Source of the DNA: Macrostomum lignano
Lineage: Eukaryota
Length of the DNA stretch: 64,000 nucleotides
NCBI GenBank assembly: GCA_002269645.1
Contig: NIVC01000620.1
Span: 186,001 to 250,000, forward strand
Reading direction: 5' to 3'
The stretch's first letter is position 1. Every line of letters starts with the position of its first letter. The translations under genes and the position numbers were made by a program. Positions 1,959 through 24,156 of the stretch are shown here, one piece after another. The notes under the pieces were generated by a model. That model did not search any database, was not told where the DNA came from, and saw nothing but the letters and a program-made list of their open reading frames with translations.

Positions 1959-2591
1959 AGTAGTAGTATGTTATAAGGGGCTGCGCCACACTTATTGCTC
2001 GGGCGCATTGCGCGCCAGCTCGCTGGATGACTCAGCCCCTTATAACATACTACTACTACCAGGAGGTCAGAGTTGCAAGTGTGTGATATTTAAATATACA
2101 TATATCTGTGAGTGAGGGTGTTGAGGGTGAGGGCATGTGGGGGCATTGGCCTGTGGAATATTTCACAGAACACAGATTTTCCGGAATTTTTATACTTTTA
2201 AAAAAGGGGGGTCGCCCTCGCCCTCATGCCCTCACTCATTTTGAAAATCAGTAAAAATAAGTAAAAAAATGACTAAAAACAGGTGAAAATGGTCTGAAAA
2301 CAGCGATTTTTGTGATTTTCAAAAATTTTGAAAAAGTGCAATTTTCACGATTCCAGCTCTAAAACCATGAGAAAAGTTGGATTCACGGGTCAATTCAATG
2401 CAATTTCAGGTATATAGAATATGAAAGTGTCATCCAGTTTAACGATAGTAAATTATATATATATAAAATGGCCTTCAGTAAACCATTATTTCTAGGAAAT
2501 GCTTTAGATATTCAGTCAGCTATAACAAAACTACCACCCATCTTCTCCACTGGAAAATATCCTGGCGAATTTCATATTCCAGGGTATTCTT
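1959..2591 (+). repeat. Polinton left TIR (~633 bp), including a terminal 25-bp hairpin and the first 124 nt of the PLA2 gene
   Basis: Reverse complement of 23457-24084. The differences I found are three 1-bp indels, one substitution and the last few terminal bases. Confidence 0.97.
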
Positions 2592-2847
2592 TTGCAAGCC
2601 AACAGCTCTGACTCACAATGCTGATGATGTATCAGATCCCCGTAACGTGGCACATTTTTGTCTATTTTTAGAACTAGAAAAAAATGAATGAAGCAAACAC
2701 AAAAGACTCTCAGACACACAGAGTGGGTGGCTCCACTGGAGCACAAAGGCAGCCTTTATTTCAAAGAGTTGTTTTCATGGTATATACTAAGGTAAGTAGC
2801 GCGGAGTGAATGTTTGAATGATAATTGTCACTTTAAGTAGTAGCATG

Positions 2848-3357
2848 TCAATTTTTCTGGACGTCCAGAAAAAATTCTGGATATTTGTCTGTCATGTGTT
2901 TATTCATAATAAAAGCGCTTCCCATTTCGCTAGTGGCTGCTTCAATCGTGTCGTTCTCTTCTTCATCAAGCATGCTGTCATCCTCTCCTTCAAAGTGCAG
3001 TTCGATGTCGAGTTCGAGGCGGCATGCGAAATTTTCATCTTCTGATGCTCTTTGTTCAATTGCCTTCTTGAACGTCAGAATGGTCTCAAAGCAATATCCA
3101 GAAATTACCAGACTCGGGTACTTTTTTGTTAGCTTGTAGAATGTAAATAGTCGCTGGGAAAACTTCACATCTATATCTAGCTTTCTCGCAACTCCTTCAA
3201 TGCTCAGTCCGAGTTTTTCTTGCAACGCAGCAATTACTTCTGCTTGCTTCTTCCTGGCAATACAACCCAGCACTTCAAGGTCGGCGATGAAACCTTCCAG
3301 TTGATTGAACCGTTCGATCATGCGAGTCTCATCATCGCCAATGATAGATGTGCACAC
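2848..3357 (-). CDS. Polinton hypothetical protein (possible HTH-like helical core, acidic tail), 169 aa
   Basis: Open ORF inside the element. No family recognised with certainty. Confidence 0.5.
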   Translation of the reverse strand: MCTSIIGDDETRMIERFNQLEGFIADLEVLGCIARKKQAEVIAALQEKLGLSIEGVARKLDIDVKFSQRLFTFYKLTKKYPSLVISGYCFETILTFKKAIEQRASEDENFACRLELDIELHFEGEDDSMLDEEENDTIEAATSEMGSAFIMNKHMTDKYPEFFLDVQKN

Positions 3358-3448
3358 CTCCTTTGCGTTGTAGAACCTATAATGAAAATGGACTCAAGTT
3401 ATGATATTTGCTTTTATTCAATGAAATTATGGAGATTGAAACTCAAAC

Positions 3449-3901
3449 TTACCGAGTCCTGATAGTTGTTACTTCGTTTGTCACTCCTCTCATTTTTTCG
3501 ATAAGGCGTCCAATAAATCGGCTTTCTCTAATAGATTTAGAATCGCTCTCTTTGCTCTTCTCTTCCTTCTTATTCTTCTTGAAGGACTCACATTCAATCT
3601 TTCGCAGTTTTTCCAGTAATGAGTTCTGCTCCTCGTTAGACAAGCGACTAACTGCAACTGCTGAACTTGATTGGTCTTTTGAGCTAATACTCTTAATCGT
3701 GGAAACTATCTTAGATGGAAGCTTTCTATCGCTGGAAGAAGCCATTTGAAATATGTTGTATAGATAGAATTCTAAACCTAAAGTAAATTTTCTCTTGCTC
3801 TTGCTTGCTAAGCTAAATGAAACTAATATAGTGATGAAGAGAAAAGTCGCAGTCAGCCGATAACAGATTACAACTAGCAAAAGTGTGTGGGTGTGAGCCA
3901 C
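3449..3901 (-). CDS. Polinton hypothetical Ser/Lys-rich coiled-coil protein (likely start MASSSDRK near 3745)
   Basis: ORF track only; low-complexity sequence. Confidence 0.35.
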   Translation of the reverse strand: MAHTHTLLLVVICYRLTATFLFITILVSFSLASKSKRKFTLGLEFYLYNIFQMASSSDRKLPSKIVSTIKSISSKDQSSSAVAVSRLSNEEQNSLLEKLRKIECESFKKNKKEEKSKESDSKSIRESRFIGRLIEKMRGVTNEVTTIRTR

Positions 3902-4645
3902 GCATTAAACTTAATATTATGTGTGTGAGTGTATTAGTTTCAACAAAGAATCTCTAACAATTACTCACGCGCTCGTTGTGCGAATTGAGATAGAGAGTAT
4001 CTTTTAATAAACACACACAAATAACTACCATAACGTTTGAGAGTTGGTGAGTGTGCCAGTCCTGCATCAGCCTGTAAATTGTTGTAAAAGACAGCTAGCA
4101 TGAGGGGTGCGCTTAGTGTCTTTTATGAGTTGAATAAGGGGGTTTGATGAAGATGAAAAAACACTGAACTCCTGTGAGAGTCTCGGGGAGTGGCAGCGGA
4201 GTGTGGTGTGAGTCAGTCTCAATCTCTCAATCAGCGAAACCAGAATTCCAAAACCAGATTGTAACTGCTAAATTTTCCTAGAAAAATGGAAGCTAATAAC
4301 CCAAATGTTCGAAATGCTCTACCACAAAAATACTATGATTCTATTATGAATTTCTCTCAAATAAAAACACCCACTTGAAAGTTTCGACTAATTGAAGAAA
4401 TTGATAAAGCTTACGATGAATATAAAGCAGAAATATTAAAACACACCGATTGTAAATGCCCCCTTATTTGTATTCATTCAGAGTATATCTTGCACATGTT
4501 GATAAATGGGCATTGATTTCGAGACAGCACATAAGGAATAATGAATTTTTCGTCATGCTGAAATTGAAGATTTTCAAACTCCCTAAAACCTTTGAGAAGT
4601 ACATTGAAACTGACGAATTATATTGTTAAATTTATTTTAAATAAA

Positions 4646-7095
4646 ATGGAAATAAAAAATCAAAATGATTCAAGTTTCTTTCCTGTGATCGTACAGGATC
4701 CGCTTCAAAACCATGATGCCCCACCACCAAGATTGACAAATTTAAAACAAACAAAATCGTACGATAAACTAATTAATCTCTATAGAGAACTTAATTTTAG
4801 ATTCGGAAGTTGCAGTATAACATGGAATAGTAAAACAGAGAAAAAATACCGTCAGGAATGTCAACCAAAGCAGATAGGAATTCAACCTCCCCACTATTTC
4901 GACCAGAGGTAGACAACATGATTTGGATAGATACCCGAAATTCAAATATAACCGTAATCGATATTGATAATGCTGACCTATGCCCTGAGTTGAATGAACT
5001 GTGTATGGCTCATTGTGATTGGATTGTTCAGACAAACAAGGGTCATCACTTTTACTTTAACAAGGTAGATAGTTAAAAAGTAACGATTCAACAAAGTGTG
5101 GGTTTTGATATTCCAGCTTTAGTATTTGCTCCACCAGGTTTCTATTATGTGGATGGTGAAATTAAGAAATACAAACGTATAAAGCCCGAAGGGTTAATAG
5201 ACATGCCAGATGTAATTCTTGATGAGATAAATAGATTAATTAAGCCACAGGATAAAACAGAAAACCAAGAACCCGATAAACAAGCACTAAAAAGCACCGT
5301 TCCACCACCCACTTGTGAAGGAGTTTCAAAGTTGTTAAGTATAATACAACACAAAAACCAAGACTATGATTCTTGGTACAAGGTGGCACTTATACTCCGC
5401 GACATAGACAATGGTGATGAAATTTACAAAGTATTCACTGATTGGTCAAAAGTCAATTATGATAAGTTCGATTCCGAGTCATGTAAAAAGGTTTGGAATA
5501 GCACCAGTGCCAGCTCTGCTGATGCACAGGACAGACTTACTATCGGTACGTTGAAGAAATGGGCAAGTGAAGAAAACTATAACAAATATAAGGAATGGAA
5601 AAGCAAATATGATTACTATGGTAGGATTGAGTATCTTGATGATAATTTCACTGACGTTAACATAACCAACTTTGTTTATGAATATTAGAAAAATAAGATA
5701 ATTTACAATAGCGATGGTATTTACTATTTTGATGATGATAAGTGGAGAGAACTAAGTAGTATAAATGACATATTTCTTAAAATATCAGACCTTGTTAGCA
5801 GTGAGTTAAACCACCGAAAGACTAGACTCGAAATTGCAATTAAGAAGGCTGATGATAAAGAGAAGTTAAAAGCACTTGAAAAGAAACTAAAGAACACAAT
5901 GAAGAATATAAATTCAATACAAGGAGCCAACAAACTCAAACAGGTAACTACTTTGTTCAAAGAGAGGTTTACTAACAATGAAATTGAATTCGATATGAAA
6001 TGGAATTTGCTAGGGTTTAACGATGGAGTATATGATCTCGCTACAGGTGAGTTTCGCGAGTATAGATATGACGATTACGTTACTAAATCGGTGGGATATA
6101 ATTACTCGGATGTACTTGGAGTTAGTGATGACGACTATGGCTTCATTGTTAATCTGCATAACCAAATTCATCCCGATCCAGAAAACAGAAAGAGTTGGGA
6201 ATCCGTTATAGCCACAGCTCTAATGGGTAAGAATGTTGAAAACTTTATAATGTTTGATGGCGCCGGTGGAAATGGCAAGGGGGTTGAGGACAACCTACTT
6301 CTTAGAACTCTAGGATCTGATTATGCAGCACCACTGAGTCCTGATGTTTTGAATTCATCAATAAGAATAGACAGGCCACAACCAGCCCTAGCACAGATTA
6401 ATAAAAAGTGATTAGTAATCAGTCAAGAAGTAAGTGGTGTCTTGAACCATACATCAATAAAATTACTAACTGGTGGAGGAGTTATTCAAGCTAGAACTTT
6501 ATATTCAAGCCAGTGTAATGTTGTTTTACACGCAACCCTAATAGTCGAATGCAACAACAAGCCTGACTTCAGACAAAATATTGGAGATGCAGAAAAAAGA
6601 CGAATTATAAATATTAATTACCCATGCAAATATACAACAGATACCGACATCATTGATCATGAGAAACACATTTATAAAGCCGATTCATATCTTAAAACCG
6701 AGGAATTTAAGAATAAATATAAGTTTGCTGAAATAAAACACCTACTAGAAATTTTCAAGCAAACAAAGGGTGAAATATATCTATCTCAAAAACACTAATA
6801 AATTCATACAGAATAGCAATTGGTTTGCTCAGTTCTTTGAAGAGAATTATGAATTTTAAGAAACTGGGGAAAAAAATTTATGCTTATTAGAGAAATTTAC
6901 ACTGCCGCAACAGAGAGTGAATACTATAGGACTCTAGCCCAACGCGAGAAACGTGAATTCCAACAACAATACATAACAGATTTCTTCAAGAATCACAAAG
7001 ACTATTGTAAGTATTATAAGGATAGATATAGGCGTAGGATAGATGGTAAACAGCAAGAAACTAGAAATGTTCTGTTTTACTGTGTGAAAAAATAA
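4646..7095 (+). pseudogene. Bifunctional primase-polymerase (PrimPol) + PriCT-2 + D5-like SF3 helicase, fragmented
   Basis: NITVIDID and VQTNKGHHFYF (PrimPol); DYDSWYKVAL...WS...FD...W...LTIGTLKKWA (PriCT-2); WNLLGFNDGVYDL (D5_N); FDGAGGNGKG (Walker A); LTGGGVIQARTLY and ECNNKP (SF3). Spread over ORFs 4592-4912, 4858-5076, 5098-5688, 5899-6411, 6442-6798 and 6880-7095. Confidence 0.88.
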
Positions 7096-7193
7096 ACGAA
7101 GATGTTATCAATGCGATTGAATTGGCTGATGAGGGACGGATCTTATAGGATCCAAATAATATCTTTTATCATCTAAAGGACTCATTGTTTATT

Positions 7194-10100
7194 TCATAAT
7201 ATCACGAATATATATTTTTTTTCAGATACAGTCATGCTTACTCTACCTCTTTGAATATCTTTGTAATCTGTCAATAGTATGTTTTTAAATGTTTCAAACG
7301 TTATATTTGTACTGCTTTTATCAACTCCCTTGATCTTAACACACTCTCCTGAAACTGTAGTGAAAGCATACTCCTTTGACCGCAGGAATACAGCTTCGGA
7401 AATTATTGAGCCATTCATTTCATCTTTCAACTTTCCAATAACTTTCTTGTTCGTCTCGGAGTATAGTGGATGCTCTGTTGGATAATCCGATGTGTCTAAG
7501 TGTTCTTTAATTTTTTCAAGATCCTCATAAAAATCCTGAGTAATCACTGAGAATATCAGAGAATCACAATCAGAATAGTGCAACTGACAGCTGTTCCTAT
7601 TCTTCTCAATAACATTGTAATAGCAATCGTACATTAGAATTTTTGCATAATCCAGAATGGCCATTCCTAAATAAATTGGCTTGTCACACGCAATTGTCTT
7701 TTTGTACATTTGGATACCAACTGCATCCTCACTAAACATAATGAAATCTTTGAAATTTGGTTTGAGAAAATAACGCCTTGCAGTTTTTTCTTCAGCTACA
7801 AGATGAAAGTTCGACCTATTCTTTACATTTTCTATTGTTTTACCGTACAATGAGTTGTTTAGTAGTTTCCACAGGTCTTTCTCAAATTTAGTTTTTGCTT
7901 CCATTCTCCGCCTGGTATTAAATTCGATGTATTTACTCAACCAGTTTGACTCTTTGAATGAAAGAATTCTATGAACTCTCGTAACTCGCATGCCCATCGA
8001 CTCATAAAACTCAAGTAGTCTGTGATGTAAAACATATTTCTCCTTGTTGTAAAATGTCAACATCAACTTTGACTGGACAAACTTTTTCTTTTCGACTTCG
8101 AGGTATTGCTTCTGTATGTCAGATAAATCCTCAAATCTAGTTGTTCGTCTTTCAGGAGCCAGTGGATATTTACCTGTAGCTTTCTTACACTCCTCTGTAT
8201 ATTCAAGGTCAACTTCAAGAAAACAACCCCTGCCATTAGGAATATTCTTGTGATACTCTAGATCATTTTCAAACTTGAAATCTCCCACAGGAAGATTTTT
8301 CATCATTGCTTCACCATATAAATTATTCTTGTCCAAGTATAACATGTATGACGATTCAGAATTGCTGTCATAATTTTCTAAATACTTATTGTTCATTTTT
8401 TTATATCGATCTCCAAGAACTCCAGAGAAACCACCGCGAATACCACTTTCTACCATGGATATCATATCTTTATCACCAAGTAATTCCAGCTCAACATTGG
8501 TATATTTCAACCCACATGCCCACGATAATCCAGAAAGGGAAAAGCAATAAGCAGGATCTATCTTGAAATATTTCAAAAATGTTGATCGAAACTTCTCAAA
8601 AGCGTTAACAAATGAGTAAATCTTTCTAATTACTGCTGTTGTATCACTGGGTGGCAAATATTTTATTTCTTCTTCAGAGAGTGTAAATGGTGGTTCCAAA
8701 AACCTAGATCCATTGTGATAAATAGGCAATTAGATAATAGCATGCACGGTAAGCAATTTTTTAGGCCCTAGACAAACCTACTTGGAGCGTTCGAAGATTT
8801 TAAAGCTATTAATCCTAATCGCCTATCGCCGGTCGGCGAGTCCTACCAGTCTTTCTCCAATAGCCGCAGGTACAGTACAAGAAAAGAAAGAACACGAGGG
8901 AACACAAACCGAAAGATTTAGAGAGTGATAATCCTATATGATACAACTGATGATTGGCTAGACGATTTAATTTGATTACTCAAGTTACAGGATTCAAGCA
9001 ATTCGCGACGCAGATAATTAGACTGATGATAACGAATAATAACGATTAATAATAACGATTATATTACGCACTGACAAGCGGATCTCAGCTTGAAGAAGAA
9101 GAAGGAGAAGGCACCGAACACAGGACCACGGAGAAAGACTCCTAACCCCTGGCCTAAGCCAGAACCTACTCTCAAACGAGAGCCCTGCCGAACCGACCGT
9201 TCAACGGAGTACCGACTAAATTCTATCGGCACTGCCCTTCAGTGTAACACTGAGGCCCTCGGGGTCGAGGCCGCGTACTTATCAGATCCGACAGTCTCTA
9301 TCTAACCGCGCTTGATAGCGACGACTTCAGACAGGAATTTGCCGTAGACGTTACGCCACAAGACTACTGCGGTTGGGCGGGAACAAAAATATGGACCGGG
9401 GGTGATGAATTCAGGCGCCTCAAAGCGCGAACCAAAGGGAACAGCTAGGCCACCGGCCGGGAGACAAGACAAAACCGGGGAAGAGAGGAGAGAGAAGGAG
9501 AGAAGGAAAAAGTGAGATCCGATTGCCAAACACACATTCATTTATAGTCAGAGTCACAACCCCTCAAAACCCCCCTCAAGCCGGGTGGTGGTCGTCTGGC
9601 TGGCCGCTTGCTTAAGCCGAATTGCACTGTGCCCGCGGCGCCGGGTAGAATTGAAACTTGCCGCGTGCCAGGGTCCAGGCCGGTTCTGATTGGCTGGCCG
9701 CGCAAAGCTGGGGTTCGCAGACAAACTCAACCCTCCGCTGAGTCACAAATTTGGCGTCTAACTCTAACCTGTTTACACAAAATTGATTCCAACTAACAAG
9801 GAAAAAGTACACCAAAAACGCATGACTAAACTAAAGCAAAATAACAATTCAATAACAATATAGAAACTAATGCAGTCAATTTACAACAAAATACACGCAA
9901 AGATGCTCACACTACACCATCTAAAAACACAACGCCACTTGTATAATTCCCCCACTTAATTGCAACATGGTCTTCCGATGTTTTAGAAATGAAATCCAAT
10001 TTATATGCTGCATTCTTTATTCTTGTTAATGGAACTATCGAATAGTTTAGATCTTTTCCAGATTCATTCAGGAGAAACAACGGTACTGTTTGATTCGCCT

Positions 10101-11382
10101 TGCCCTCTTTGGTATTACATGATTGACATGCTGCGCCGCGATATTTACCATTGTAGTGATTATGCTCTCGAATTTTCTTACTATCTACAAATGGGCTTGT
10201 GCAGAGAAAACATTGTTCTGCCGCTTTGCAATCAGTCTCTTCGACATCACTTAAACTTGGATGTTTATATCTATCCATTTCATTTTTAATATGCTCAAAC
10301 TTTTTGATTACGGTTTCAACGAATGATTCCACTGTAGTATTTGAAATAATATCCGACTGTATAATGTCTTCATAATCAGAACTAGTAAAAAGTGTCCATT
10401 GTGATAGTTCTAGCGATTTATCATCCATAGTTACATAATCCAATATAGCATAAAACACAAATGGCTTTCTCACACTCATGTGGTAGTTTTTAAACTTTAA
10501 TATCATCTTATCAATCTTTGGAACTTCAATTGACACCTTGAAGTCGACGCAAAGTGCTTTATGATTATCCAGTGCATCTTGGGAGTATTTCACTTGAAGA
10601 CACTTTCGACAAAGAAAAGCCCTGTTATTGGACGTCAGGAATAAGTTCAGGTCTGTTATTAAACAATAATGATTTTTGACAAGTAGTAAATCAATAACAT
10701 CGGGGTTGTCATAATCTTCAGTAAGACGAATTGAATATATGGACTCTTTAGTTTTAGTATCTCTCAATCCAAACACATTTATATGGAGGCTGTTCAACTT
10801 TTCAATCTCAGAGATATCTCGAATGTCTACTGGAAACGCAACGTCTCCTAAGTTTATTTCATTTATATACTGTGTATACTTAATAACTCTATATCTATGT
10901 TCCTTCACAGGATGGAGCTTTGCTAAAATAGACCAGAGAAAGCACCTATTGTCTTTAGTATTCTTAACATTTACTAATGCGTTTGATTTAATTGGAATTG
11001 GAATATAAGTTCCTCCTTTCAACTGATTAATGCCAACAACTTTCAACACAATCTTTACTAACTTAACAAAATAATATCCCGATCCCCTTTCATTAAAGCT
11101 ATCCTTCTATTCATCAAATTCATCCAGAACATCCCCGATTGTACTTTCAATACTAGCTTCAACTTGAAGCAGATTTAACAAAGTTCGATGCTTTGAATGA
11201 TATTGGAACTCAATCCAACTGTCGGTAGTTCCTTTATAAAATTCTGCGACAAAGGAAATTCTGTATTTTATTGAATCTCTAGCCATCAAAAATTCGGAAA
11301 GAATTGGAGAGATTAAACCGCGAATTTCTTCAACGGAGTCGAGTTCAAATTCATAAGAGGCCGCTGGTATTTTCCTTTCCAT
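7194..11382 (-). pseudogene. polB: Protein-primed family B DNA polymerase (TP-like N-terminus, vOTU-like protease, EndoVII/HNH-like insert, degenerate exonuclease, polymerase), split by a solo LTR
   Basis: YLDKNNLYGEAM (motif A), KLLNNSLYGKT (B), YSDCDS (C), KIKG. NTKDNRCFLWSI...NHY (vOTU-like Cys/His). CFLC...REHNHYNGKYRGAACQSCN (EndoVII-like). Removing 8714-9920 restores FLDGSRFLEPPF. One in-frame TAG at 11107-11109. Confidence 0.93.
8714..9916 (-). mobile_element. Solo LTR (1203 bp, probably Gypsy) inserted in PolB
   Basis: TG...CA ends and 4-bp TSD CCAT (8710-8713, 9917-9920). Excision restores the PolB frame. A minus-strand TATAAA (~9541-9546) and CCAAT (~9689-9693) suggest the orientation. 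Confidence 0.88.
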
Positions 11383-12150: not shown

Positions 12151-13530
12151 TTATGTGGCAATTATGTCTAAAATCGGATAAAGTTGAAAGCCTGAAACTA
12201 TAAGAACAGTTGATCCTTCAGTGGCTGAATTAATATGCACTCTATAAACGGAGAATTTTTCGGTGGAAGCTACTTCGAAATACTTCATCACTCCAGGAAC
12301 TAAACCAGCGTTTTCGGTAGAAAAAAATATTCTTTAAGTCTCTCTTGTTATTGCTTCCTTTCAGAATAAAACGTTTTGGTTGATTTTTTATAATTTCACT
12401 ACCTACTGCTTTGGTTCCTTTCAATCCGAATTTCCAAATTTGAATAGACTCGGGAAGTTGTACTTCAATGTAAGAATTGGAATCATTCCTCGATGCCCAT
12501 TCTGAATTAGATACTATATAACCCCAATTATCTGACGTTGCAAATGCTCCAGATGACGCTACATTGAAACCCCTTTCTCTCTAGTTTTGGTATGTTGCTA
12601 GTGAGGGAATATATCCTGTATAAGATTTGAAACCTAGTCCCCGCCTTAGTCGCAGCTCCACTGATTCAAGTACATTGTCTACGTATAGCTTTGGTACAGC
12701 TTGAAGTCTATCTATAGGCCACACTAAATCATTAACCACTGTTTCTCTCTCAAGTAATTCAATTTTTGTAAGCTTTACAGAACCAGAAAAATTTAGAGAA
12801 TAATGGAAATAATATGAGGGATTGGGTATTTGTTTCCTAAGATGTGCATTGCTCCTTCGTAGTTCAATGGGTGCACTTTGTTCAACAGGTGTCCAGTTTG
12901 TTCCATTTAGGCTCACACTAACAGACCAACCAGGCCACACCTCTCCTTCCAACTTTATCTCTACAACTTTCCTAGCTCTTTTCAAAAATTGAAATCGTAT
13001 CCACTTGTCTGAGTCATCTGCACTGCTCCATTCTGAAGCTGGGTTTGAATCTGCAACATGATATGCTGCTGAAGAGTTATGAGAAGCGGTCAATTTCATG
13101 TCAGGATGGGAAGTGTTTGAAGTCAGTAATGAAAGAATATTGACTAATTTCGAAGTCTCTGTACCCCCACAGTACCTTGCCTTTCTGCTAATAAAGTGTC
13201 AATTTCAGTTTTAGAATACATCTTAGTGTCAATTTCGGTTCTAGAATACATCTTAGTGTCAATCTCAGTTTTTGTGTAGACATTGTTTACGCGCCCATGA
13301 GCATCGTCAATTAATTGTAGCATGGTGATATTCATTGCGTCACTATCTTCCTTTGAATAACAGTCTGAAACATTTCTCTTTGCTAACAATAAACTATCTA
13401 TTTCCTCTCTCTTATATCCTTCACTTTCATTGATGTAGCGATCATCAGCTAACGCTATTGTTATTCCAGGCGCTATATCATTTGAATTTGACGAGTAACC
13501 AAATTGATTGGCAGTATTCTTGTAACTCAT
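12151..13530 (-). pseudogene. Fibre/receptor-binding-like protein: Y(T/S)KxEID repeats + discoidin (F5/8 type C-like) domain + C-terminal domain; frameshifted
   Basis: YTKTEIDTKMYSRTEIDTKMYSKTEID repeats, then LTSNTSHPDMKLTAS...D.NPASEWSS...WIRFQF...SLNGTNWTPV. The last fragment ends at TAA 12151-12153. Confidence 0.65.
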
Positions 13531-13967
13531 TTTAATTGCTGCAAAATTTCATTAAAGCTATCTCCTTTATCGATTCGGTGTAAAAAGTACAGCGACATTT
13601 GACCACAATATTTCTTATCAAAAGTTTGAATTTGTTCTTCCATGTCTCCACATATTCTATTCTTTGTGTGATTAAACTTTTCCATAATTTCCAGTGTGGG
13701 GGGTAGTGCATAGGAATCAAAATAATAAACCTTATCAGGAGCTGAAAAGATAGCTGAATGATGTATACCCCGTTCTTTCGAAGTGTGAATATTTGTCATA
13801 AAGTAACCATACTGTGGTAAACCAACAATTTCATCTCTCATGGCATAACGAAATGGTTTTAACTTGAGATATTTTGCCCAATTTATCAGATCAATATTAG
13901 TCGTAGTGTCAGTCCCAAACTTTTGTTTAAATGCGTTCCATGTGTCAGCTTTGCTCATTTTTAACAC
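13527..13967 (-). CDS. Adenain-like (C5) cysteine maturation protease (ATG probably 13958)
   Basis: N...RGIHHS, YYFDSY, QIQ and YCG give His/Asp/Gln/Cys in adenain order. Confidence 0.85.
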   Translation of the reverse strand: MLKMSKADTWNAFKQKFGTDTTTNIDLINWAKYLKLKPFRYAMRDEIVGLPQYGYFMTNIHTSKERGIHHSAIFSAPDKVYYFDSYALPPTLEIMEKFNHTKNRICGDMEEQIQTFDKKYCGQMSLYFLHRIDKGDSFNEILQQLK

Positions 13968-14152
13968 TCATATTTGTCGTACGTGTAGATTTATAAATAT
14001 TTCCTCGCCAAGAAATATTGGGATCGTTTTATGAGAACCAGATAATATCTGCAAGCTAAGCTTGGTCAGCTAATGTTAGTTTAATTTTAGACTTTTAGTG
14101 ACTCTAAGGGATCTTGTGGTTTTTTTCTTGGTTCACAAAATTTAACATAAAG

Positions 14153-14482
14153 TCAAAGTGAAATTAAAATAAAAAATAAAAGTTGTGGAATTATTAGTAA
14201 TGTACTTGATATTACTATTAATGATATTGCAATTTTTATATTTGATTCATCATTATTTGATATTCCTATGATATTCAATTTTTTAGATAAAAATAAGGCG
14301 GGAAAAATAATCATCATAAGTAAGATTAGTAAAATAATAGGAATTATAATATTTTGATAGCTGTTCGTTTCACTTGGTTGGTTATCATCCGTTACTTTAC
14401 GCTCTTTGTCTTTATCAAATAAAAGGGGCGCTGCTGCTATAGGATGGGTGCTGTCACAGGTGTTGGCACAATCTGTTGCCAT
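14153..14482 (-). CDS. Small two-transmembrane protein in the inserted cassette
   Basis: Two long hydrophobic runs (IIIPIILLILLMMIIFPALF; IAISLIVISSTLLIIPQLLFFILISL) and a TATAAAATG start. The frame continues ~23 codons past the TGA. Confidence 0.55.
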   Translation of the reverse strand: MATDCANTCDSTHPIAAAPLLFDKDKERKVTDDNQPSETNSYQNIIIPIILLILLMMIIFPALFLSKKLNIIGISNNDESNIKIAISLIVISSTLLIIPQLLFFILISL

Positions 14483-14483
14483 T

Positions 14484-14744
14484 TTATAGTTTATTTTTTA
14501 AATAAACCTTATCAGGAGCTGAAAAGATAGCTGAATGATGCATACCCCGTTCTTTCGAAGTGTGAATATTTGTCATAAAGTAACCATACTGTGGTAAATC
14601 AACAATTTCATCTCTCATGGCATAACGAAATGGTTTTAACTTGAGATATTTTGCCCAGTTTATCAGATCAATATTAGTCGTAGTGTCAGTCCCAAACTTT
14701 TGTTTAAATGCATTCCATGTCTCAGCTTCGCTCATTTTTAACAC
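14484..14744 (-). pseudogene. Truncated second copy of the protease
   Basis: Near-identical to the N-terminal ~80 aa of 13527-13967 and lacks the Asp/Gln/Cys half. Confidence 0.9.
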
Positions 14745-15539
14745 TCATATTTGTCGTACGTGTAGATTTATAAATATTTCCTCGCCATCAAAGTCGTATA
14801 GAACACCAGACTCATCTTCGATGACAAAATCGAATGTGCTCAACATGTTTGTAGTTAGTGGTAGGTACACAGGATTTGCAGGCTCTTGAATAATTTTACT
14901 TCCCATTGGGACGGAGAACGATGGAATTGAGAGAAGTATTTGCTTATCAATTAAATGATTTCGATTCGCTGGATCAGTGATAAAACCCCCCTTGATATTT
15001 AGACAACGAACCATGATTGCACTTCTAGCTCCGTCTATCCGAGCTGGATTTGGAGCTCTCTCAAATGGTTTCAAATACACTTCCGAATCGAATCCCAACA
15101 GTCTTCTAAAATTATTGGAATGTGCATCCCTGAAATCAACTTGATAATTTGTGGCTAACCGTAACTCAGCTCTACGCGTGTCTAGGCTTGCACTAAAAAC
15201 AATAGCCCCCTCTTTCCAATCATTTGCAGCTGTTAGCAATCTTTGAATCTCGCTTGGCAGACTTTTAACTTCCTATGAACCTGCTTGAATCTTTATTTTT
15301 CTCCATGTTCTACCACTATCCCTCGAGTATCGCAACTCATTATTGCCTCCTTCAATATTGTTAATGGCATCAAATACTGCAAACTTTTTTATACCAGCTT
15401 CGTATTCTCGATCTTCATAAAGATTTATAGGAGTGCCTAGAGTTTGTCGAAATGAGTTTTTAATTGAAAAGAAGTCAAATGTGCGTTGAAACTTTTTACT
15501 CAAGAGGATGTTGACTTTTTCTATTTCTTTTTTCCATTT
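14745..15539 (-). pseudogene. Minor capsid protein (penton)
   Basis: AINNIEGGNNELRY, NNFRRLLGF, VRCLNI, SVPMGSKIIQEPANPVYLP, FDFVIEDESG. One in-frame TAG at 15273-15275 and a homopolymer frameshift near the ATG. Confidence 0.8.
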
Positions 15540-16273: not shown

Positions 16274-17045
16274 TTACAATGGGATTTTAGTTAGAACATC
16301 CTTATACAAATCTTGCTCATCCTCATCAGCTCTTGTATTTATATAGATATAGCCATACTTCTTTTTCCAAGCCTTTCTACATTTAGCCTTGAATATAGCG
16401 GGTTCATAATTCGTTTCTATATTTCTAGCAATGTGATTCAAGTTTGTATCTTTTTGTTTAAAGATTATGTAGCATGTCGTATTCTCCCTGACAGTATTGC
16501 GATCTAGTTTGGTAAAATTTTGAGCTAGATAAAAACCACAACAGTTTCCATGCCTGCCTCTCTGAAACAGACTTTCCTGAAATGTTTGATTAGCCTCTCC
16601 CAAAACATCGTCCAATATCACATGTCTTTAGTCCATTATGAAAAATTTCTTCATTTGGAGTATGAGAAAGAGTGACAGGAATTTTTTTGATTTCTTCATT
16701 TTTTTCTGATGTGCTTTGCACTCGACCAAGGTCGGCTGCCTCTCGACAAATATGTCTAATATCTTCAGGAGATGCATCCTCACTCACCTGGTAGACATGA
16801 TAGAGTGAGTTGATAAGAGAAGGTGGGAGACCATTTTCAAAGCCATGCTTTAGAAACTGATACTCTGGATCCATTTGAGATGCTCTGGGAACATATAAAA
16901 CTAACTCATTAAAGTCCACTAGTTTTTCAGGACTTGTAAGAATATGGAATAGTAAATATGTTTTACCCGTATTTGTAGCGCCGATAAAACAACATAAAAG
17001 AGGATTAGGGAAAATAGGATCATGCTGAAATTTTACTTTGGGCAT
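16274..17045 (-). pseudogene. A32/FtsK-like DNA packaging ATPase, frameshifted
   Basis: GATNTGKT (Walker A), ILDD (Walker B), RGRH, AQN and FKQ motifs across ORFs 16590-17045 and 16274-16621. Confidence 0.92.
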
Positions 17046-17066: not shown

Positions 17067-18434
17067 TTATTCGACGCGGCCCATTTGAGGGTGAGGCCCA
17101 CTGATAACTTGGATTACATTATTTGTTTGTTCAAGAATTAGTGCAAAAGCTGTCAGCTCAACATTGGTTGACTTCTTGATAAATAATTGAATATTCACTC
17201 CAATCTTGACAAGAAACTCATCCTGAGCTGTTAGATCAAAGCAGAATATTGGATAGATGGTTAGATAGTCTTGTTTATTGAATGGTGGAGTTACACCGAA
17301 ATGGCTGCAGATGCCCTCGTACATTTCACACGCTTTATGAATGTCTTGAGCTACTGGATCAATATCAACATAATCAGTTGGATACATCACTTGATTTAAT
17401 CTGACTTGAAGCTGGGTTATTTTTACTGCATTTGCTCCAGTCTTGTAAGACACATACTTGTGATCATTAACTATATATGATGGGTTGTTTACGTCATATT
17501 TGAAGGCTACAAAGATTGCAAGTGGCATATTGGAGATGCTGGTTTTGTTCCATGTATATGGGCTTCCTTGAATGAGTTGTGGCGGAATCGTTACCCTCTC
17601 TGGAAATGATACTATAATGCTCTTGTTGAGTGATTCTAGAAAAGCTGCTTCAGCACTGGGTGACAAAGTAATAGCAGGGATCCAAATCTCAAAGCTATTA
17701 ATAGTTAACTTAGCTTCGGTCCCGGCAGCTCCAAAGAAAATTTCAGCATCGTTAGTCTTTCTTGTCCATGTAAATTTGTATTTAATTCCTTTGCTAATTT
17801 TCTGCCAATCAAGGAACCCAATGAGGGGTGTTAATGATAGTTTGATTGTTCCACCTCTGTTTGGAGCATTAGTGACATTATTATAATTTTCAAGCCTCCT
17901 AATGTATCCAGTATTCGAATCCTTCTTATTAAGTCTATTTTTCATAGCGATTGCTGCAGTTCTCACAGCTTCAGCATCTGCGTTGTTTGCTAGAGGTATA
18001 TCAGAAACAGTCCCAGCATCCCCAGTGTCTGGAATCCAACCGTATGCTTCTCCGACTTCATTCATCAATTTTGAGTACATTACGGATTTTAAGATTGTGT
18101 CATACTCTCCAGGTTCATTATAGACTTCCTTTGATCCTCCTATGTCCACAATAAGTTGAGAAAACAGACGCATAGGCCAATTATGTTCTAGAGTAATGTT
18201 CGTATTCAAGTCTGTGTTATCTCGCTGTGTTATCGAGTATCTTATAAAACCGAATGCCTCTGACATGAGAATGTATGCCTCTGTTGAATTGACTTCATGA
18301 ACTATTTGACCTCCAGCAACATTGACATTATTACTGCTACCTGCTGTTGGCGAAATCTTAATATAATCTTTCTTTTTGAAAAAGCTAAAAGTTTTGTCCT
18401 CATATAGGTTCAGTATATCCTTTTTGTTTTCCAT
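17067..18434 (-). CDS. Double jelly-roll major capsid protein, 455 aa, intact
   Basis: Size, position next to the ATPase, beta-rich pattern and C-terminal YPIFCFDLTAQ resemble Polinton MCPs. Confidence 0.8.
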   Translation of the reverse strand: MENKKDILNLYEDKTFSFFKKKDYIKISPTAGSSNNVNVAGGQIVHEVNSTEAYILMSEAFGFIRYSITQRDNTDLNTNITLEHNWPMRLFSQLIVDIGGSKEVYNEPGEYDTILKSVMYSKLMNEVGEAYGWIPDTGDAGTVSDIPLANNADAEAVRTAAIAMKNRLNKKDSNTGYIRRLENYNNVTNAPNRGGTIKLSLTPLIGFLDWQKISKGIKYKFTWTRKTNDAEIFFGAAGTEAKLTINSFEIWIPAITLSPSAEAAFLESLNKSIIVSFPERVTIPPQLIQGSPYTWNKTSISNMPLAIFVAFKYDVNNPSYIVNDHKYVSYKTGANAVKITQLQVRLNQVMYPTDYVDIDPVAQDIHKACEMYEGICSHFGVTPPFNKQDYLTIYPIFCFDLTAQDEFLVKIGVNIQLFIKKSTNVELTAFALILEQTNNVIQVISGPHPQMGRVE

Positions 18435-18820
18435 TTTTATACGAGAAATTTAAACTAAGCTTCATGAGGTCTAAGAATTATCCCATTACCCTGTTTCTCC
18501 TTTTCAACTTTAAAAGTCTTTAGCAGCCACTTAACTGCTTCACTGGGTACTTGTTCGACTCTTTTAGCCGCATCAACTAATACACCACTCCCTTGAGCTT
18601 TTTTAAATTCTTCTAGTTTTTGTCGTTCAATGCTTTCTAATGTCTTATTATGTTTAGCATTGTTGGCTGTATTAACACTTTTTGCAATCATTGTACCAAC
18701 TCCTGAGGCTGCTCCGATACCACCCAAAATTGCTGGTAGTAAGCCTAATAGAGGAATTATTCCACCTTCATGTTCTTTCTGTTTGTCTTGCAATTCTCGA
18801 ATCTTCTCTTTAGAAAGATA

Positions 18821-21752
18821 CTAGCAGAACCCCCCGCTTAAAGTGTCCCATCCACGGAAAATTCCAATCTATTGCATAACTCCCCCATTAAATTTTCCCA
18901 TCCGTGAAAAATTCCAATCTATGGGATGCAAATCCTCGGAATCCTAGTCTTACAGTATGTGAGCCAACATAATTTTAATTGATATTATTAAAATTCGATA
19001 ACAAATCGCAATAGACAATGCAACGGAAATACTTAAAATAATACTGAAATGCTGTGTAGTGTGACTTTCACATCTTGTACTTATTTGCAAAAAAATCGAT
19101 GCGATGGCACAAATCGAATTTACGCGCTGAGTTTATTGATGGAGTTTATTGACTTTGAGGACAGCTCAGCAAGAATCAAATTTTACAATAAAAATGACTC
19201 ACATTCTACGGAGTTGAAAAGCTCTACTTTTCTCTACTACTCTTCTCTGAAAAGCTCTGCAATTTTTAACATATCATCTGTAAATTCAGTAAGTCCATGA
19301 AATAAATGATATATACTTCTATTACAGTCCTTGACGTCAGTGCGATTTATCGGCGGCTGCTTCACACCGCTTCATTCAGTATCGATGGTTTCATTAGCTG
19401 ACTCTGCAGGCAAATCCTTGGACATACAGGAGGCGTCAGGGTTGTCTGCCTCACACCGATCTGGTCCCAGCCGAGGTTCCTTCCGTCGTGGCGTCAGTTC
19501 CTCCGATTCGTCCAGTCTCTCTCCAAGGATTGATTCCAGATGGTCCCGCTCTGCCCGAACGATGTCCAAATCGTACCTGAGTATGGCGATCTCGTCGTCC
19601 CTCGCCTTCTGCCCTTCTTCCAATTCTGCGATGCGCTTTCTCAGATCGGCTATTGTTGAACCCTGTTCTCCTACAATATCGGAGAACACTTCCGCCGCCA
19701 CGCAGGTGTAGAATCACGTCCCGCATTGTCACAGGGCCCTCACCATCATCAGCAGTCTCAGTGCCAGTCAAGACAGCAACCTCACTGACAGCAGGAAGGT
19801 TAAAGCGTCTGTAAATGCAGAAAAATAATAGTTATAATAATATTAGTCATACAAATAGGAATAGTTTGGAATAATTAAAACCATGTATGTTCACAACATC
19901 TCAAAATCATTTACCTTAAGTGTTCCCCAGCTGGCTTTCGGTCCGCGCGAATCACAAGAGACGAATGCTTCAGCTGAGGGTCCTCAGTCAGTCTCTCAAT
20001 CGCAGCTTTGAAACTGCGCACATAAGAATTGTGTCGGTGCAGCAAGTTCTGAAGCAATTCTATCAGCTGGCGGTCAATGCCCTGGACCATGGCCATCCTT
20101 GTCTCCAATTCGGAGTCACAAAAAAAAGATCTGACAAAACTTTGCTGCACAATTTCCTTCAGGGAGCAAACTTCCCATTCGGTGGTGAAACTCTCCATGA
20201 ACAATCACGTTAATACATCCACCAGGTAGTAGTCTCTCATTCACTCCCAATGAACACATGTGAAGCAGAGCATTGATCTTTCTTACGTTGTTCAGGAAGT
20301 TGGCGCTTTTGTCGCGCTCACCCAGGTAAAGTCTCTTGAGCTCGTCCGGGATTTGTGGCGGCGTCAATTTCACCTTTTCGCCCTTACAGCACATTCCAGG
20401 TGGTTCATATTGCCAGAGCAGGGCGCTGCATTTCTTGCATTGTAACGCCATTCGCCCCGCAAAATGTGGCTTCATAGCAGTCGCAGTCAGCTGCCAACTC
20501 TGGCGCAGGGCATCTCGGGCACGTGCTGCACTCAGTCGGGCAGCACTGTCCGTCTCAGTCTCGACATTATTGTAAACACGGGTGGAGATCTCAGAGAGGT
20601 CGGGTAGCTCCGCCTGTGCACTGCTCATAGAACGAGCACCGCTATCAGACCCCACTGTAGCATCTAAAAAAACATCCACTGATGACGCGCAGCGACTCGT
20701 AATGCTGGCTACTGCGGTGGTACAGCAGCAGAACGGTGGCCACAGACGGCAGCGTCGCTGCTGGTGAGCTCTGCACGCAGGTCAGCCTGTCGTCTTGGGA
20801 CTCGTCAAGCTGATAAATAGCGAAATCCACGTTCAGGATTTTGCCAAGCAAAGGCGCGACAAAATCATGAACGTAGACCCCATCAGTCAAGGTGTCCCGT
20901 ACCACCTGCTCGATGGTCAGCCGCTCGACCTGCAGCAGGGCAGCCTGCTCCTGGAGCAGAGGCGGGAGTCTGTCTGCCATTGTTCGCCTGACCATGGCGT
21001 GGTCCATGGCCAGCGGCGTTCCGCGCAACTGATCCGCAACGGCGTGAAAGTAGCAGTTGCCGTCCCCACTGACAGGAGTAACCTGGGTGCAGGTTACACT
21101 GAGCGCGCGACCCGTGACTGACCTGCAGTTAACAACGTTTAATACTTTAAATCCAACGTTTAATCCATGTTTAGATTAAGGGGCGAAGGCAGATTTATTT
21201 CAAAACACGATAAATCTCAATGTTCATGAGTTCATTGGTTGCTAGGGTCTTCGAATTGGTTGCTAGGGTCTTCGAATTGGTTGCTAAGGTCCTCGAATTG
21301 GTTGCTAGGGTCTTCGAATTGGTTGCTAGGGTCCTCGAATTGGTTGCTAGGATCCTCGAATTGGTTGCTAGGATCCTCGAATTGGTTGCTAGGGTCCTCG
21401 AATTGGTTGCTAGGGTCCTCGAATTGGTTGCTAGGGTCCTCGAATTGGTTGCTAGGGTATTTTTGATTTTGGTTGCTACGGTCTCGTGCTTTGGTTGCTG
21501 GGGTCTCGTTTTTTGTTGCTTTTAACTGCAACTTGCTTTTATGACTGCAACAAGAATGCACTAAGGAGATAGGAAAAATACAGTTTTTCCCACATTGCCA
21601 AGCTCCCTGTCAACATTAAGGCGATTTGAAACATGCCACATTGTCCCAGAAAGATGTGCCATCGAATGGTACAGGTCCCACGGACGGCGGACCAGCCGTT
21701 CGCCCGGAAACGTGACGCGCACAGACAGACAAACTCAACTTTAGGTATATGA
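18821..21752 (-). mobile_element. Non-autonomous, internally deleted Helitron (2932 bp)
   Basis: Inserted between A and T; 5' TCATATACCTAAAGTTGAGTTTGTCTG, 3' CTAG. Carries OTU-like (HYESLR), Zn-finger (CKKC...CC.GEKVKL) and Rep N-terminal pieces homologous to 39265-47529. No HUH or helicase region. Confidence 0.9.
21234..21460. repeat. 21-bp minisatellite (gtcctcgaattggttgctagg)n inside the Helitron
   Basis: About 11 near-perfect units. Confidence 0.95.
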
Positions 21753-21847: not shown

Positions 21848-22270
21848 TCAGAATTTCTTCAAACCATTGCCTTGTCTCAAAGACACTTGAGACTGTTCTG
21901 CTGTTCCTAGAGCCTTTTTAACAATATCTTGAATGGCCTTGTTTGATTGCGAAGCTATCTGTTGCTCTTCTTCCATTCTTTTCTTTGCTTCTTTTTCTCG
22001 GCGTTTCTTTTTAATATATTCCAGTTCCTCGCCTGCTTTAGACATGTCACTGTATGATTTCTTCGCATCAAATATGTTTTTCGCTGTGGTAGCTGTTTTA
22101 CCTATTGCATCGGCTCCACTCACAATTTTACTTCCATGATTTGATAAAAAGTTTGTGACACCACTGATCATATCACCAATTCCTTCACCCTCTTTATCAG
22201 CTAGTAGTTGTGAATCAGACGTTTCAATCTGACCTTTCGCCCGTTTGCAGTTTGTTCGATAGGCGCTCAT
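21848..22270 (-). CDS. Basic/coiled-coil virion core-like protein with GEGI and GNGL motifs
   Basis: Start TAAAAATG at 22270. The GxG-hydrophobic motifs are shared with other core ORFs of the element. Confidence 0.6.
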   Translation of the reverse strand: MSAYRTNCKRAKGQIETSDSQLLADKEGEGIGDMISGVTNFLSNHGSKIVSGADAIGKTATTAKNIFDAKKSYSDMSKAGEELEYIKKKRREKEAKKRMEEEQQIASQSNKAIQDIVKKALGTAEQSQVSLRQGNGLKKF

Positions 22271-23038
22271 TTTTAGTTGGAAAATTTGCTGGTAAAAGCT
22301 GGGATTTGTAAAATGATCCAATTTCTTCTCCATTCTCATCCTCAATAATGTAAGTTATGGGATTTGAGTAAACTATTTTCTTTATCCTAAACACTTCTGA
22401 AATTTTCCAATAACCTCTTCGGCCCTTTTCAAAGTGCTCCTTGTATCTATAGATATGAACTTTGTCACCTACTTTGAAGTTTGGTTTCTCATTTGAATAC
22501 TCGAAGGAAGGCTTTGGTACTCGCTCAGGATGTTTAGATGCTTCTGAAGGAGTTATCAGAATCTCAGAATGGATTGTGTTGTTGTATTTTTCAACAATAG
22601 TTGGCAATATGTGGAGCCACTTCTGGTTTCCTTGTAGATCAAATTCAAACCAGAGTTTATTTGTGAGAGTACGATTGAACCTCTCAATCATTGCATTCTT
22701 AGACTCACCATAAATTGAGAACATCTTGTTAATATACTCCCCATTTTCATCTTTCTTTCTTATGTCGTCTTTTGAAAACGAGTATAGCTTGTGTACATAT
22801 GCTGATTATAAAACTCCTTGCCTTCATCTACACAAAGTCTCTCTGATCGTCTTCCTGATTCCTTAAATACTTTTTGGAAAGCTTCTGCAACTTCCGCTCC
22901 CGTCTTTGTTTTCAAAGGTACTGCCCAAGCGTAACGTGTAAAACCATCTATGATAGTGAGTGCATATTTGTAACCTCTTTCAGGAGGAAGGATAATGATA
23001 TCTGCATGCCAAATTGTGTCTTTTGCATAGTGAATCAT
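22224..23038 (-). pseudogene. Polinton retroviral-type (rve, DDE) integrase, frameshifted
   Basis: IWHAD, TIIDGFTRYAWAVPLK, VDEGKEFYN, IERFNRTL, YNNTIHS, FKVGDKV and NPITYIIED...GSFY. Confidence 0.93.
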
Positions 23039-23580
23039 TTTCTAAATACTCTTGGCTTTCGATATTCTTTATGCAATTTCAAAGCATCTTCATAGCTAAG
23101 ACCATTGCCGTATATGGTTAGACAGTCTATACAATTGTTGGGGGTGTGAGTATGAATGCCTAATCCAAACCGAACTTTAGCTTTAATAACACGCTTTACT
23201 AGATTTCTAATCAGTCTCTCTTTCACAGACAAGTCTCTGGTTGGAATAGCATCTAAATCAGCAATCATTTTTTCATCAGCAATATGCTTCTTTGCTAGGG
23301 CTTCCTCTGGAGTTGAAGACGTCTTTTCAGCATCTCTATAGCTTTTGTCATAATAGTAAGCAGTCCAATCGATTGGGTTAATTGGTAGACTATCATACCG
23401 AGGCCTGTCTGTAATTGGATTGAGTCTTTTGTCTAAATTTGTACCTGGGCCAGTACAAGAATACCCTGGAATATGAAATTCGCCAGGATATTTTCCAGTG
23501 GAGAAGATGGGTGGTAGTTTTGTTATAGCTGACTGAATATCTAAAGCATTTCCTAGAAATAATGGTTTACTGAAGGCCAT
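23035..23580 (-). CDS. Parvovirus-VP1-like phospholipase A2 domain, probably the N-terminus of a PLA2-integrase fusion
   Basis: HIPGYSCTGPGTNLDKRL...PINPIDWTAYYYDKSY (the catalytic HD reads YD). The ORF end LHKEYRKPRVFRK matches the usual N-terminal lead-in of Polinton integrases. Confidence 0.85.
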   Translation of the reverse strand: MAFSKPLFLGNALDIQSAITKLPPIFSTGKYPGEFHIPGYSCTGPGTNLDKRLNPITDRPRYDSLPINPIDWTAYYYDKSYRDAEKTSSTPEEALAKKHIADEKMIADLDAIPTRDLSVKERLIRNLVKRVIKAKVRFGLGIHTHTPNNCIDCLTIYGNGLSYEDALKLHKEYRKPRVFRK

Positions 23581-24084
23581 TTTATATATATATAATTTAC
23601 TATCGTTAAACTGGATGACACTTTCATATTCTATATACCTGAAATTGCATTGAATTGACCCGTGAATCCAACTTTTCTCATGGTTTTAGAGCTGGAATCG
23701 TGAAAATTGCACTTTTTCAAAATTTTTGAAAATCACAAAAAATCGCTGTTTTCAGACCATTTTCACCTGTTTTTAGTCATTTTTTACTTATTTTTACTGA
23801 TTTTCAAAATGAGTGAGGGCATGAGGGCGAGGGCACCCCCCTTTTTTAAAAGTATAAAAATTCCGGAAAATCTGTGTTCTGTGAAATATTCCACAGGCCA
23901 ATGCCCCCACATGCCCTCACCCTCAACACCCTCACTCACAGATATATGTATATTTAAATATCACACACTTGCAACTCTGACCTCCTGGTAGTAGTAGTAT
24001 GTTATAAGGGGCTGAGTCATCCAGCGAGCTGGCGCGCAATGCGCCCGAGCAATAAGTGTGGCGCAGCCCCTTATGACATACTAC
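23457..24084 (-). repeat. Polinton right TIR (~628 bp)
   Basis: Inverted copy of 1959-2591. It ends catactac and runs into (gagactac)-type octamers instead of tact. Confidence 0.97.
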
Positions 24085-24156
24085 GAGACTACGAGACTAC
24101 GAGGCTACGAGACTAGCGCTGTCTGGGATTTTGATGAGGATTACCGCAAGCTCATG

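Follow-up and report, generated by a model that had tools for sequence, protein, structure and literature searches.

A Polinton family of Macrostomum lignano that pairs a degenerate polymerase exonuclease with a D5-like primase-helicase

Introduction

How might a Polinton replicate if its protein-primed DNA polymerase (pPolB) has lost its proofreading exonuclease and a D5-like primase-helicase gene converges on it? The question is raised by a 64,000-nucleotide stretch of the Macrostomum lignano genome (contig NIVC01000620.1, positions 186,001 to 250,000; this whole stretch is hereafter the window), in which an entire, broken Polinton/Maverick copy spans positions 1959-24084, with terminal inverted repeats (TIRs) of ~640 nt at both ends. 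Across all taxon groups, Polinton pPolBs are described as having conserved exonuclease motifs (Jeong 2023, PMC10748475; here and below, statements from the literature refer to those sections of each paper that were considered). An initial annotation of the window had proposed that the exonuclease loss was evolved, and that the element might use primase- or hairpin-primed, error-prone replication resembling that of virophages or Polinton-like viruses (PLVs). Comparison with sister copies in the same genome points to a loss common to a whole family and co-inherited with the D5-like gene, which we are inclined to explain by helicase-assisted, protein-primed replication.

Exonuclease degeneration across the window's family

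Closer examination of the window pPolB, encoded on the minus strand, confirmed each motif of the initial annotation: YAILD (10438-10452) at Exo I, LLNESGKD (10051-10074) at Exo II and IRKIYSFVNAFE (8595-8630) at Exo III, together with polymerase motifs A (8313-8339), B (7839-7868) and C (7560-7577) and the Cys (10933-10953) and His (10657-10674) of a vOTU-like domain. The 1203-bp TG...CA element with a CCAT duplication that interrupts the gene was likewise correctly named: 40 matches to it were scored elsewhere, some of them in pairs ~9.3 kb apart, which identifies it as a solo long terminal repeat (LTR); contigs from two other sequencing runs join across 8714-9916.

A search of the organism's own genome returned 90 matches from 84 of 1219 candidates scored, falling into two groups: the window's own family (family 1, on 27 contigs, with identities mostly of 75-97%) and a sister family (family 2, on 52 contigs, with identities of 51-55%). 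NCBI also lists under Macrostomum lignano a protein 95% identical to the N-terminal half of the window polymerase. We compared 11 family-1 and nine family-2-type loci, the fragmentary L040 being excluded from later counts. The KG.YPYEY segment and Exo III are absent in 11/11 family-1 sisters, with IRKIYSFVNAFE standing at the Exo III position; LLNESGKD is present in all 11 and YAILD in nine, while the normal Exo I pattern Y[AC]DxE occurs in none. Polymerase motifs are intact in every sister. The shortening described in the initial annotation is borne out: the segment from FLD to AFE measures 39 aa in nine of the 11 LTR-free sisters (two are not readable in one frame) against 127 aa in family 2, so that ~88 residues are missing from family 1; for homologs from elsewhere, 107-125 aa is the usual length.

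The exonuclease residues of phi29 polymerase are Asp12, Glu14, Asp66, Asp169, Tyr165 and Lys143 (PMC4974454). On this scheme, family 1 has no counterpart of Asp12 (Exo I Asp), of Asp169 and Tyr165 (Exo III Asp and Tyr) or of Lys143 (within the Kx2h-type KG.YPYEY segment), while Asp stands in place of Glu14 and Asp66 is kept. The proposed motif loss therefore holds for Exo I Asp, KG.YPYEY and Exo III, and does not extend to the Exo II Asp, the only canonical member left of the proofreading set (Exo I DxE, Exo II Asp, Exo III Tyr/Asp, Kx2h Lys). Because metal-ligand and other phi29-equivalent residues are gone, exonuclease activity has probably been lost. These motifs are a usual Polinton trait and lie outside the PolB-plus-integrase definition of the group.

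Selection was estimated as dN/dS on variants common to several copies, giving ~0.17 for the family-1 polymerase (58 nonsynonymous, 83 synonymous) and 0.34 and 0.15, from small counts, for the exonuclease remnant, all indicative of purifying selection. Since such selection is seen on variants common to copies, family 1 spread with this polymerase; the loss is an evolved family trait, older than that spread, in agreement with the initial annotation. The remnant also carries an EndoVII-like HNH insert (~10090-10230, minus strand; PF02945), which is better conserved than the rest of the exonuclease region (identity of 0.60 with near homologs) and aligned, as the sole match in a PDB sequence search, to T4 endonuclease VII. 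This insert may explain why the exonuclease scaffold was retained.

An exonuclease-intact sister family without D5

In polymerase trees (FastTree) family 2 is the sister of family 1, with support of 0.995 and 0.994, and it keeps the exonuclease motifs at 8/8 loci, one with an Exo II variant. Because the polymerases are sisters, family 2 can stand for the ancestral state. The co-occurrence of exonuclease loss and D5 proposed for checking was found: of the 27 family-1 contigs, 26 carry a D5 match, against none of the 52 family-2-type contigs (75 of 120 candidates scored). The gene is also absent from 4/4 TIR-bounded family-2 elements, in which homologs of most structural and integration genes are present.

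Between the families, the major capsid protein (MCP) is only ~24% identical, against 52-65% for protease, integrase and polymerase; a capsid gene swap and fast evolution are both possible readings. Two small open reading frames (ORFs) at 2848-3904 (minus strand) match (58-62%) L035, one of the four family-2 elements only, which suggests gene exchange between the families.

The D5-like primase-helicase

The predicted D5-like protein combines features of an archaeo-eukaryotic primase (AEP) and a superfamily 3 helicase (S3H): AEP motifs (DID, 4954-4968; TNKGHH, 5029-5052), PriCT-2 and D5_N domains, Walker A (6259-6282), Walker B (6412-6429), motif C (6541-6558) and an Arg finger. Pfam models matched Prim-Pol (weakly, below cut-off), PriCT_2 and D5_N, and ESM features scored as Prim-Pol-like (0.97); a PDB sequence search with D5 gave no match. 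Frames of ~840 codons are open in 4/11 family-1 sisters, with intact Walker motifs. A dN/dS of ~0.29 (57/48) indicates purifying selection on the gene, its least constrained part being PrimPol (~0.5; 18/9). Relatives of this D5 are ~30% identical and its placement in the tree is unsupported (0.53); two viral contigs with such relatives, L121 and L122, appear virophage-like, with no polymerase in the stretch covered.

A second exonuclease-deficient clade

Exonuclease loss is rare among the 371 polymerases that we aligned, which were gathered by homology to family 1 or to P0238 and so are not an unbiased survey. The stretch from Exo I to motif A is covered in 274 of them: all four carboxylates are present in 259, three in four sequences, two in three and one in family 1, while the seven proteins of one other clade have none in the canonical columns. 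This second clade (P0238, P0342, P0359-P0363) is likewise missing the segment and has an Exo I of YLAME type and an Exo II of HGLKEREAH type; it is distant from family 1 (tree distance 2.8) and sister to the exonuclease-intact P0364. Its single contig with genomic context, L123 (JGI, 16.3 kb), is a virophage that has an RVE integrase and Sputnik-type capsid genes and in which a D5-like gene of 900 aa adjoins the polymerase. Given the distance between the polymerases and a D5 only 27% identical to that of family 1, segment loss in the two lineages appears to be convergent.

Viral-contig scans for this second clade gave no match. Close relatives of the family-1 polymerase outside this organism were not found among the best 120 of 1716 matches, among the best 150 of 2031 (where P0194 is family 1 itself) or in JGI metagenomes. 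An S3H match was found at 0/31 IMG/VR loci with a group-2 pPolB, most with intact motifs and several of them partial; their 39 long ORFs include one superfamily 2 (SF2) helicase, on L166, whose exonuclease region is outside the sequence covered. Nor was an S3H found in 13.8 of the 15.5 kb of L154, a virophage with intact exonuclease. In P0210 and P0446 the Exo I and Exo III Asp are changed and the segment is kept, possibly an early stage of exonuclease loss. The Mytilus proteins P0049 and P0050, with short or missing segments, were set aside as gene-model artefacts (P0049 keeps its carboxylates).

Also observed among these sequences were an intein within polymerase motif C of P0012 and P0022 and, on Polinton-like viral contigs, the SF2 helicase adjoining the polymerase (L166:2449-4251) and a phospholipase A2 (PLA2)-like domain fused to an ADP-ribosyltransferase-like domain (L165:6201-7595).

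Priming and fidelity

In the terminal protein (TP) domain of the polymerase, a Ser loop, ERGSG (11077-11091), lies between helix and strand in 10/11 family-1 sisters, and was assigned by alignment to the linking-Ser position predicted for Polinton TP domains (PMC11161782, section 6). The vOTU Cys/His and the AGTAGT ends are also kept in family 1, and terminal repeats such as AGTAGTAGT are of the type used in sliding- or jumping-back initiation (PMC4974454). With loop, vOTU residues and AGTAGT-type ends all kept, protein priming looks retained, and the proposal that a primase has replaced it is so far not supported.

Error-prone replication has fared similarly. Private substitutions amount to 0.03-0.98% in the 11 exonuclease-deficient sisters versus 0.11-4.5% at eight family-2 loci, and third-position transitions and transversions among common variants number 50/13 versus 61/36; neither private changes nor transversions are in excess, although these are weak tests, confounded by age and sampling. 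The only hints of error-prone copying are a 1.4-fold longer polymerase branch in family 1 than in family 2 (0.49 vs 0.35) and weaker constraint on its polymerase domain (dN/dS 0.14 vs 0.05).

Gene content and boundaries of the element

Group-2 Polinton features are found throughout the window copy (Table 1): long TIRs with AGT-repeat ends, an RVE integrase, a double jelly-roll (DJR) MCP, a packaging ATPase (weak Pox_A32 match) and a pPolB with motifs A-C, vOTU and TP-like domains (the TP fold assigned from alignment) that nests among group-2 pPolBs in our trees. From its sequence, 1959-24084 is best classed as a bona fide group-2 Polinton/Maverick. The D5-like gene and pPolB (~7120-11382, minus strand) converge, their 3' ends lying tail to tail. 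Besides the LTR, the window pPolB carries two stops and one frameshift.

By eye, 6-bp target-site duplications (TSDs) surround five of six paired sister copies (C219, C2232, C944, C4094 and C4788, the last two with common flanks); none was seen at C3947, the window copy or its look-alike on C1101, an insertion with 10 TIR mismatches. Over 630 nt the two TIRs of the window copy show 1 mismatch and 3 gaps, versus 1.8-2.3% private changes in its genes, a contrast that may reflect either TIR homogenisation or a long non-autonomous history. An 8-nt tandem repeat of 4.5 copies (24080-24115) stands in place of the right TIR's last bases.

ORF 13527-13967, without a Pfam match, may encode a maturation cysteine protease, judging from its motifs; its start is duplicated by a 292-nt direct repeat (13724-14792, 777 nt apart) that contigs of other runs skip. 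ORF 14745-15539 also has no Pfam match. A GC-rich insert at ~19700-21600, with a 21-nt tandem array and low coverage in other runs, contains putative OTU-like and Helitron-like ORF pieces. Runs tentatively taken as RNA cover the element but may contain DNA, and we drew no evidence of expression from them. Outside the element, a 492-aa ORF (26276-27754, minus strand) resembles a piggyBac-type transposase.

Table 1. Features of the window copy (positions in the window)
Feature	Position	Strand	Remarks
Left TIR	1959..2600	+	Starts AGTAGTAGT; 630-nt match to right TIR, 1 mismatch and 3 gaps
Terminal hairpin within TIR	1959..2057		25-bp arms, 49-nt loop; mirror at 23990-24084
D5-like AEP(PrimPol)-PriCT2-D5N-superfamily 3 helicase gene	4646..7095	+	Window copy with 4 stops, 3 frameshifts
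pPolB, C-terminal part	7120..8713	-	Shortened Exo III region (8595-8708) and motifs A, B, C; 3' end approximate
Solo LTR inside pPolB	8714..9916		TG...CA, 1203 bp, CCAT target duplication
pPolB, N-terminal part	9917..11382	-	TP-like domain, vOTU Cys/His, degenerate Exo I and Exo II, EndoVII-like HNH insert
Putative maturation cysteine protease	13527..13967	-	~60% identical to family-2 gene; similar ORFs in Polinton-like viral contigs
Putative minor capsid protein, two pieces	14745..15539	-	Named from position only
Packaging ATPase, two pieces	16274..17045	-	Pox_A32 E 0.0013, below cut-off
DJR MCP	17067..18449	-	PF21738 E 1.5e-10
RVE integrase, two pieces	22224..23041	-	PF00665 E 1.7e-11
PLA2-like gene, common in group-2 Mavericks	23035..23685	-	PF08398 E 1.2e-6
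Right TIR	23448..24084	-	Final bases merge into 8-nt tandem repeat (24080-24115); no TSD visible

Discussion

The motif loss in the exonuclease domain is fixed in family 1, whose polymerase is under purifying selection, and is co-inherited with D5. From these observations we infer loss of activity, protein priming, dependence on a helicase and the order of events. In phi29 polymerase the template passes through a tunnel made by TPR2 and the exonuclease domain, and mutants in the metal ligands of the exonuclease are defective in strand displacement (PMC6351526); a pPolB with a gutted exonuclease domain should therefore need a helicase, which the S3H could supply. On balance we lean towards regarding family 1 as a protein-primed Polinton whose S3H helicase replaces the strand displacement lost with the exonuclease domain. 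The TP domain would prime at the AGTAGT ends and the vOTU would cleave TP off; the 3'-5' exonuclease domain would be dead and partly deleted, its remnant staying as a scaffold for the EndoVII-like HNH insert. The acquired AEP-S3H protein would unwind the duplex ahead of the polymerase, making the family dependent on D5; re-priming, or copying of the displaced strand, may fall to the protein's primase domain. The helicase half is the more likely compensating function.

Several points weigh against this explanation. The Exo II Asp is retained (N-ESGK-D, 11/11) and an Asp occupies the Exo I Glu position; AEP motifs are retained in 9-10/11 copies, although a protein acting purely as a helicase would have no use for them; and both genes are open in 0/11 family-1 sisters. 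The pairing of exonuclease loss with D5 is found in two independent lineages only, one resting on a single contig, while the IMG/VR loci are partial and the S3H profile could miss divergent helicases. Further, a helicase with an intact exonuclease exists in the Oxyrrhis SF1-pPolB fusion (PMC12721341).

A bolder reading, which we hold only tentatively, places an animal Polinton midway in a replication-module swap, with the D5 primase making primers that a non-proofreading pPolB extends, and with the KG.YPYEY-Exo III deletion repeatably following helicase capture in unrelated lineages. If true, a laboratory animal would harbour, beside an ancestral-state family, a living link from Polintons to the helicase-driven PLVs and virophages.

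The main rival, in our judgement unlikely, is a takeover already underway in which AEP-S3H primes internally and unwinds, while pPolB only elongates or is on its way out, family 1 being an intermediate toward group-2 Mavericks with AEP-SF3 instead of pPolB. Such members are often found in group 2 (10.64898/2026.06.19.733378, section 5), and the combination of pPolB and D5 in Halocafeteria virophages has been read as a transient state (10.64898/2026.07.28.741278). The kept AEP motifs, the Prim-Pol-like ESM features, the weaker polymerase constraint and the longer branch would all fit a takeover; the TP Ser loop, vOTU Cys/His and AGTAGT repeats, kept under purifying selection, and the intact polymerase motifs of all 11 sisters would not.

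It is also improbable that the association is coincidental, with D5 a passenger and the exonuclease loss tolerated otherwise, or that family 1 uses the proofreading polymerase of family 2 in trans. Family 2 is indeed abundant in the same genome, independent cases are few, and the partly degenerate exonucleases of P0210 and P0446 show that others exist; nevertheless, polymerase and D5 are both under purifying selection, the termini of the two families differ beyond AGTAGTAG, and the pairing recurs in L123 with a highly divergent D5.

Still less probable is parvovirus- or poxvirus-like hairpin priming, as put forward for the Halocafeteria elements (10.64898/2026.07.28.741278), in which the 99-nt hairpin would give the 3'-OH, D5 unwind and the well-conserved HNH insert resolve the closed end. 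The terminal hairpin folds strongly as DNA (-33.6 kcal/mol, z -7.8, 0/200 shuffles as good), and its arms change together in 2/29 termini and partly in a third. A single loop orientation, however, was found in 34/34 distinct termini of integrated copies (flip/flop 0/34; from the best-scoring 40 of 122 and 40 of 144 candidates), and an HUH nuclease is not among the Pfam matches of 26 window ORFs. Moreover, the exonuclease-intact, D5-less family 2 has larger terminal hairpins, with 7/7 ends folded (L032, L037, L039, L103, L106, L110, L114). Hairpin priming as a lineage trait, suggested in the initial annotation, is thus not supported so far, and the hairpin was rejected as a marker of the exonuclease-deficient lineage. 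In both families the inner arm is an inverted copy of the end (arms of 25 bp and ~80 bp).

Finally, post-insertion decay or an LTR-insertion or assembly artefact, compatible with the heavy damage to the window copy (1.8-2.3% private changes) and with the LTR sitting in the shortened segment, is refuted by the same short segment in LTR-free sisters, and X15, a contig of another run, spans the LTR region with few differences.

Comparison with known systems

Exonuclease loss accompanied by helicase gain has been described for mavirus (S3H) and for Tlr1-like PLVs (superfamily 1 helicase, S1H), where a compensatory link was proposed (PMC11161782) and later echoed (PMC13215967); the resemblance to virophages and PLVs noted in the initial annotation is of this kind. 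An S3H is known from some Polintons, and the combination of pPolB with a primase-helicase has been termed uncommon (PMC3671162). In the open-access literature, taken without supplements (those of PMC10748475 may list flatworm elements), our searches turned up neither an animal Polinton described as combining D5 with an exonuclease-dead pPolB nor any account of the flatworm elements themselves.

Krupovic et al. 2024 drew the compensatory link from two ancient cases whose intermediate steps are erased. Family 1 would be a recent intermediate whose dead domain can still be aligned residue by residue. The closest polymerase relative that we found, family 2, has an intact exonuclease and no helicase and offers a control within the same genome, and the L123 clade is a parallel case of independent origin. 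With this pair of families the proposed trade-off becomes directly testable, as does any use of the primase; a helicase that restores strand displacement could be told apart from one that restores fidelity, or that does both. To judge from the motifs, animal Polintons would not be uniformly proofreading.

Family 1 resembles other group-2 Mavericks/Polintons (Polintoviricetes; adintovirus-type pPolB with HNH) in its TIRs, RVE integrase, DJR MCP, ATPase and PLA2, and in its TP-vOTU-Exo-Pol layout with HNH insert, homolog P0088 being named adintovirus PolB. Unlike them, it has lost Exo I Asp, KG.YPYEY and Exo III and has a separate AEP-S3H gene; in the sections of the adintovirus paper considered, S3H is mentioned only in figure legends on non-animal hosts (PMC8502044). 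The L123/P0238 clade is similar in its group-2-type pPolB with HNH, dead Exo I/II, the same missing segment, an adjacent D5-like gene and an RVE integrase, and differs in its Sputnik-type capsid (the MCP matches Sputnik models); its genes are also laid out divergently rather than convergently, and, with polymerases far apart and a D5 only 27% identical, the likeness is convergent. Tlr1-like pPolB-S1H proteins of PLVs and transpovirons have also lost the exonuclease and gained a helicase (PMC11161782), there of superfamily 1 and fused to the polymerase, whereas in family 1 AEP-S3H is separate and the polymerase ends after the thumb at ~1020 aa. Halocafeteria virophages and PLVs combine pPolB with a D5 primase-helicase and have terminal palindromes in their TIRs, in a protist host and, in the sections considered, with the state of the exonuclease not reported (10.64898/2026.07.28.741278).

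Mavirus-like virophages likewise keep TP, vOTU and palm, have lost the exonuclease and encode S3H on a separate gene (PMC11161782). They differ in that family 1 has a Polinton-type MCP (PF21738 only), an animal host and an independent origin, keeps a large exonuclease remnant with HNH, and has a helicase carrying an AEP primase domain, where the mavirus S3H has no other domain (PMC3671162). By analogy, family 1 would work like mavirus, yet it is a Polinton.

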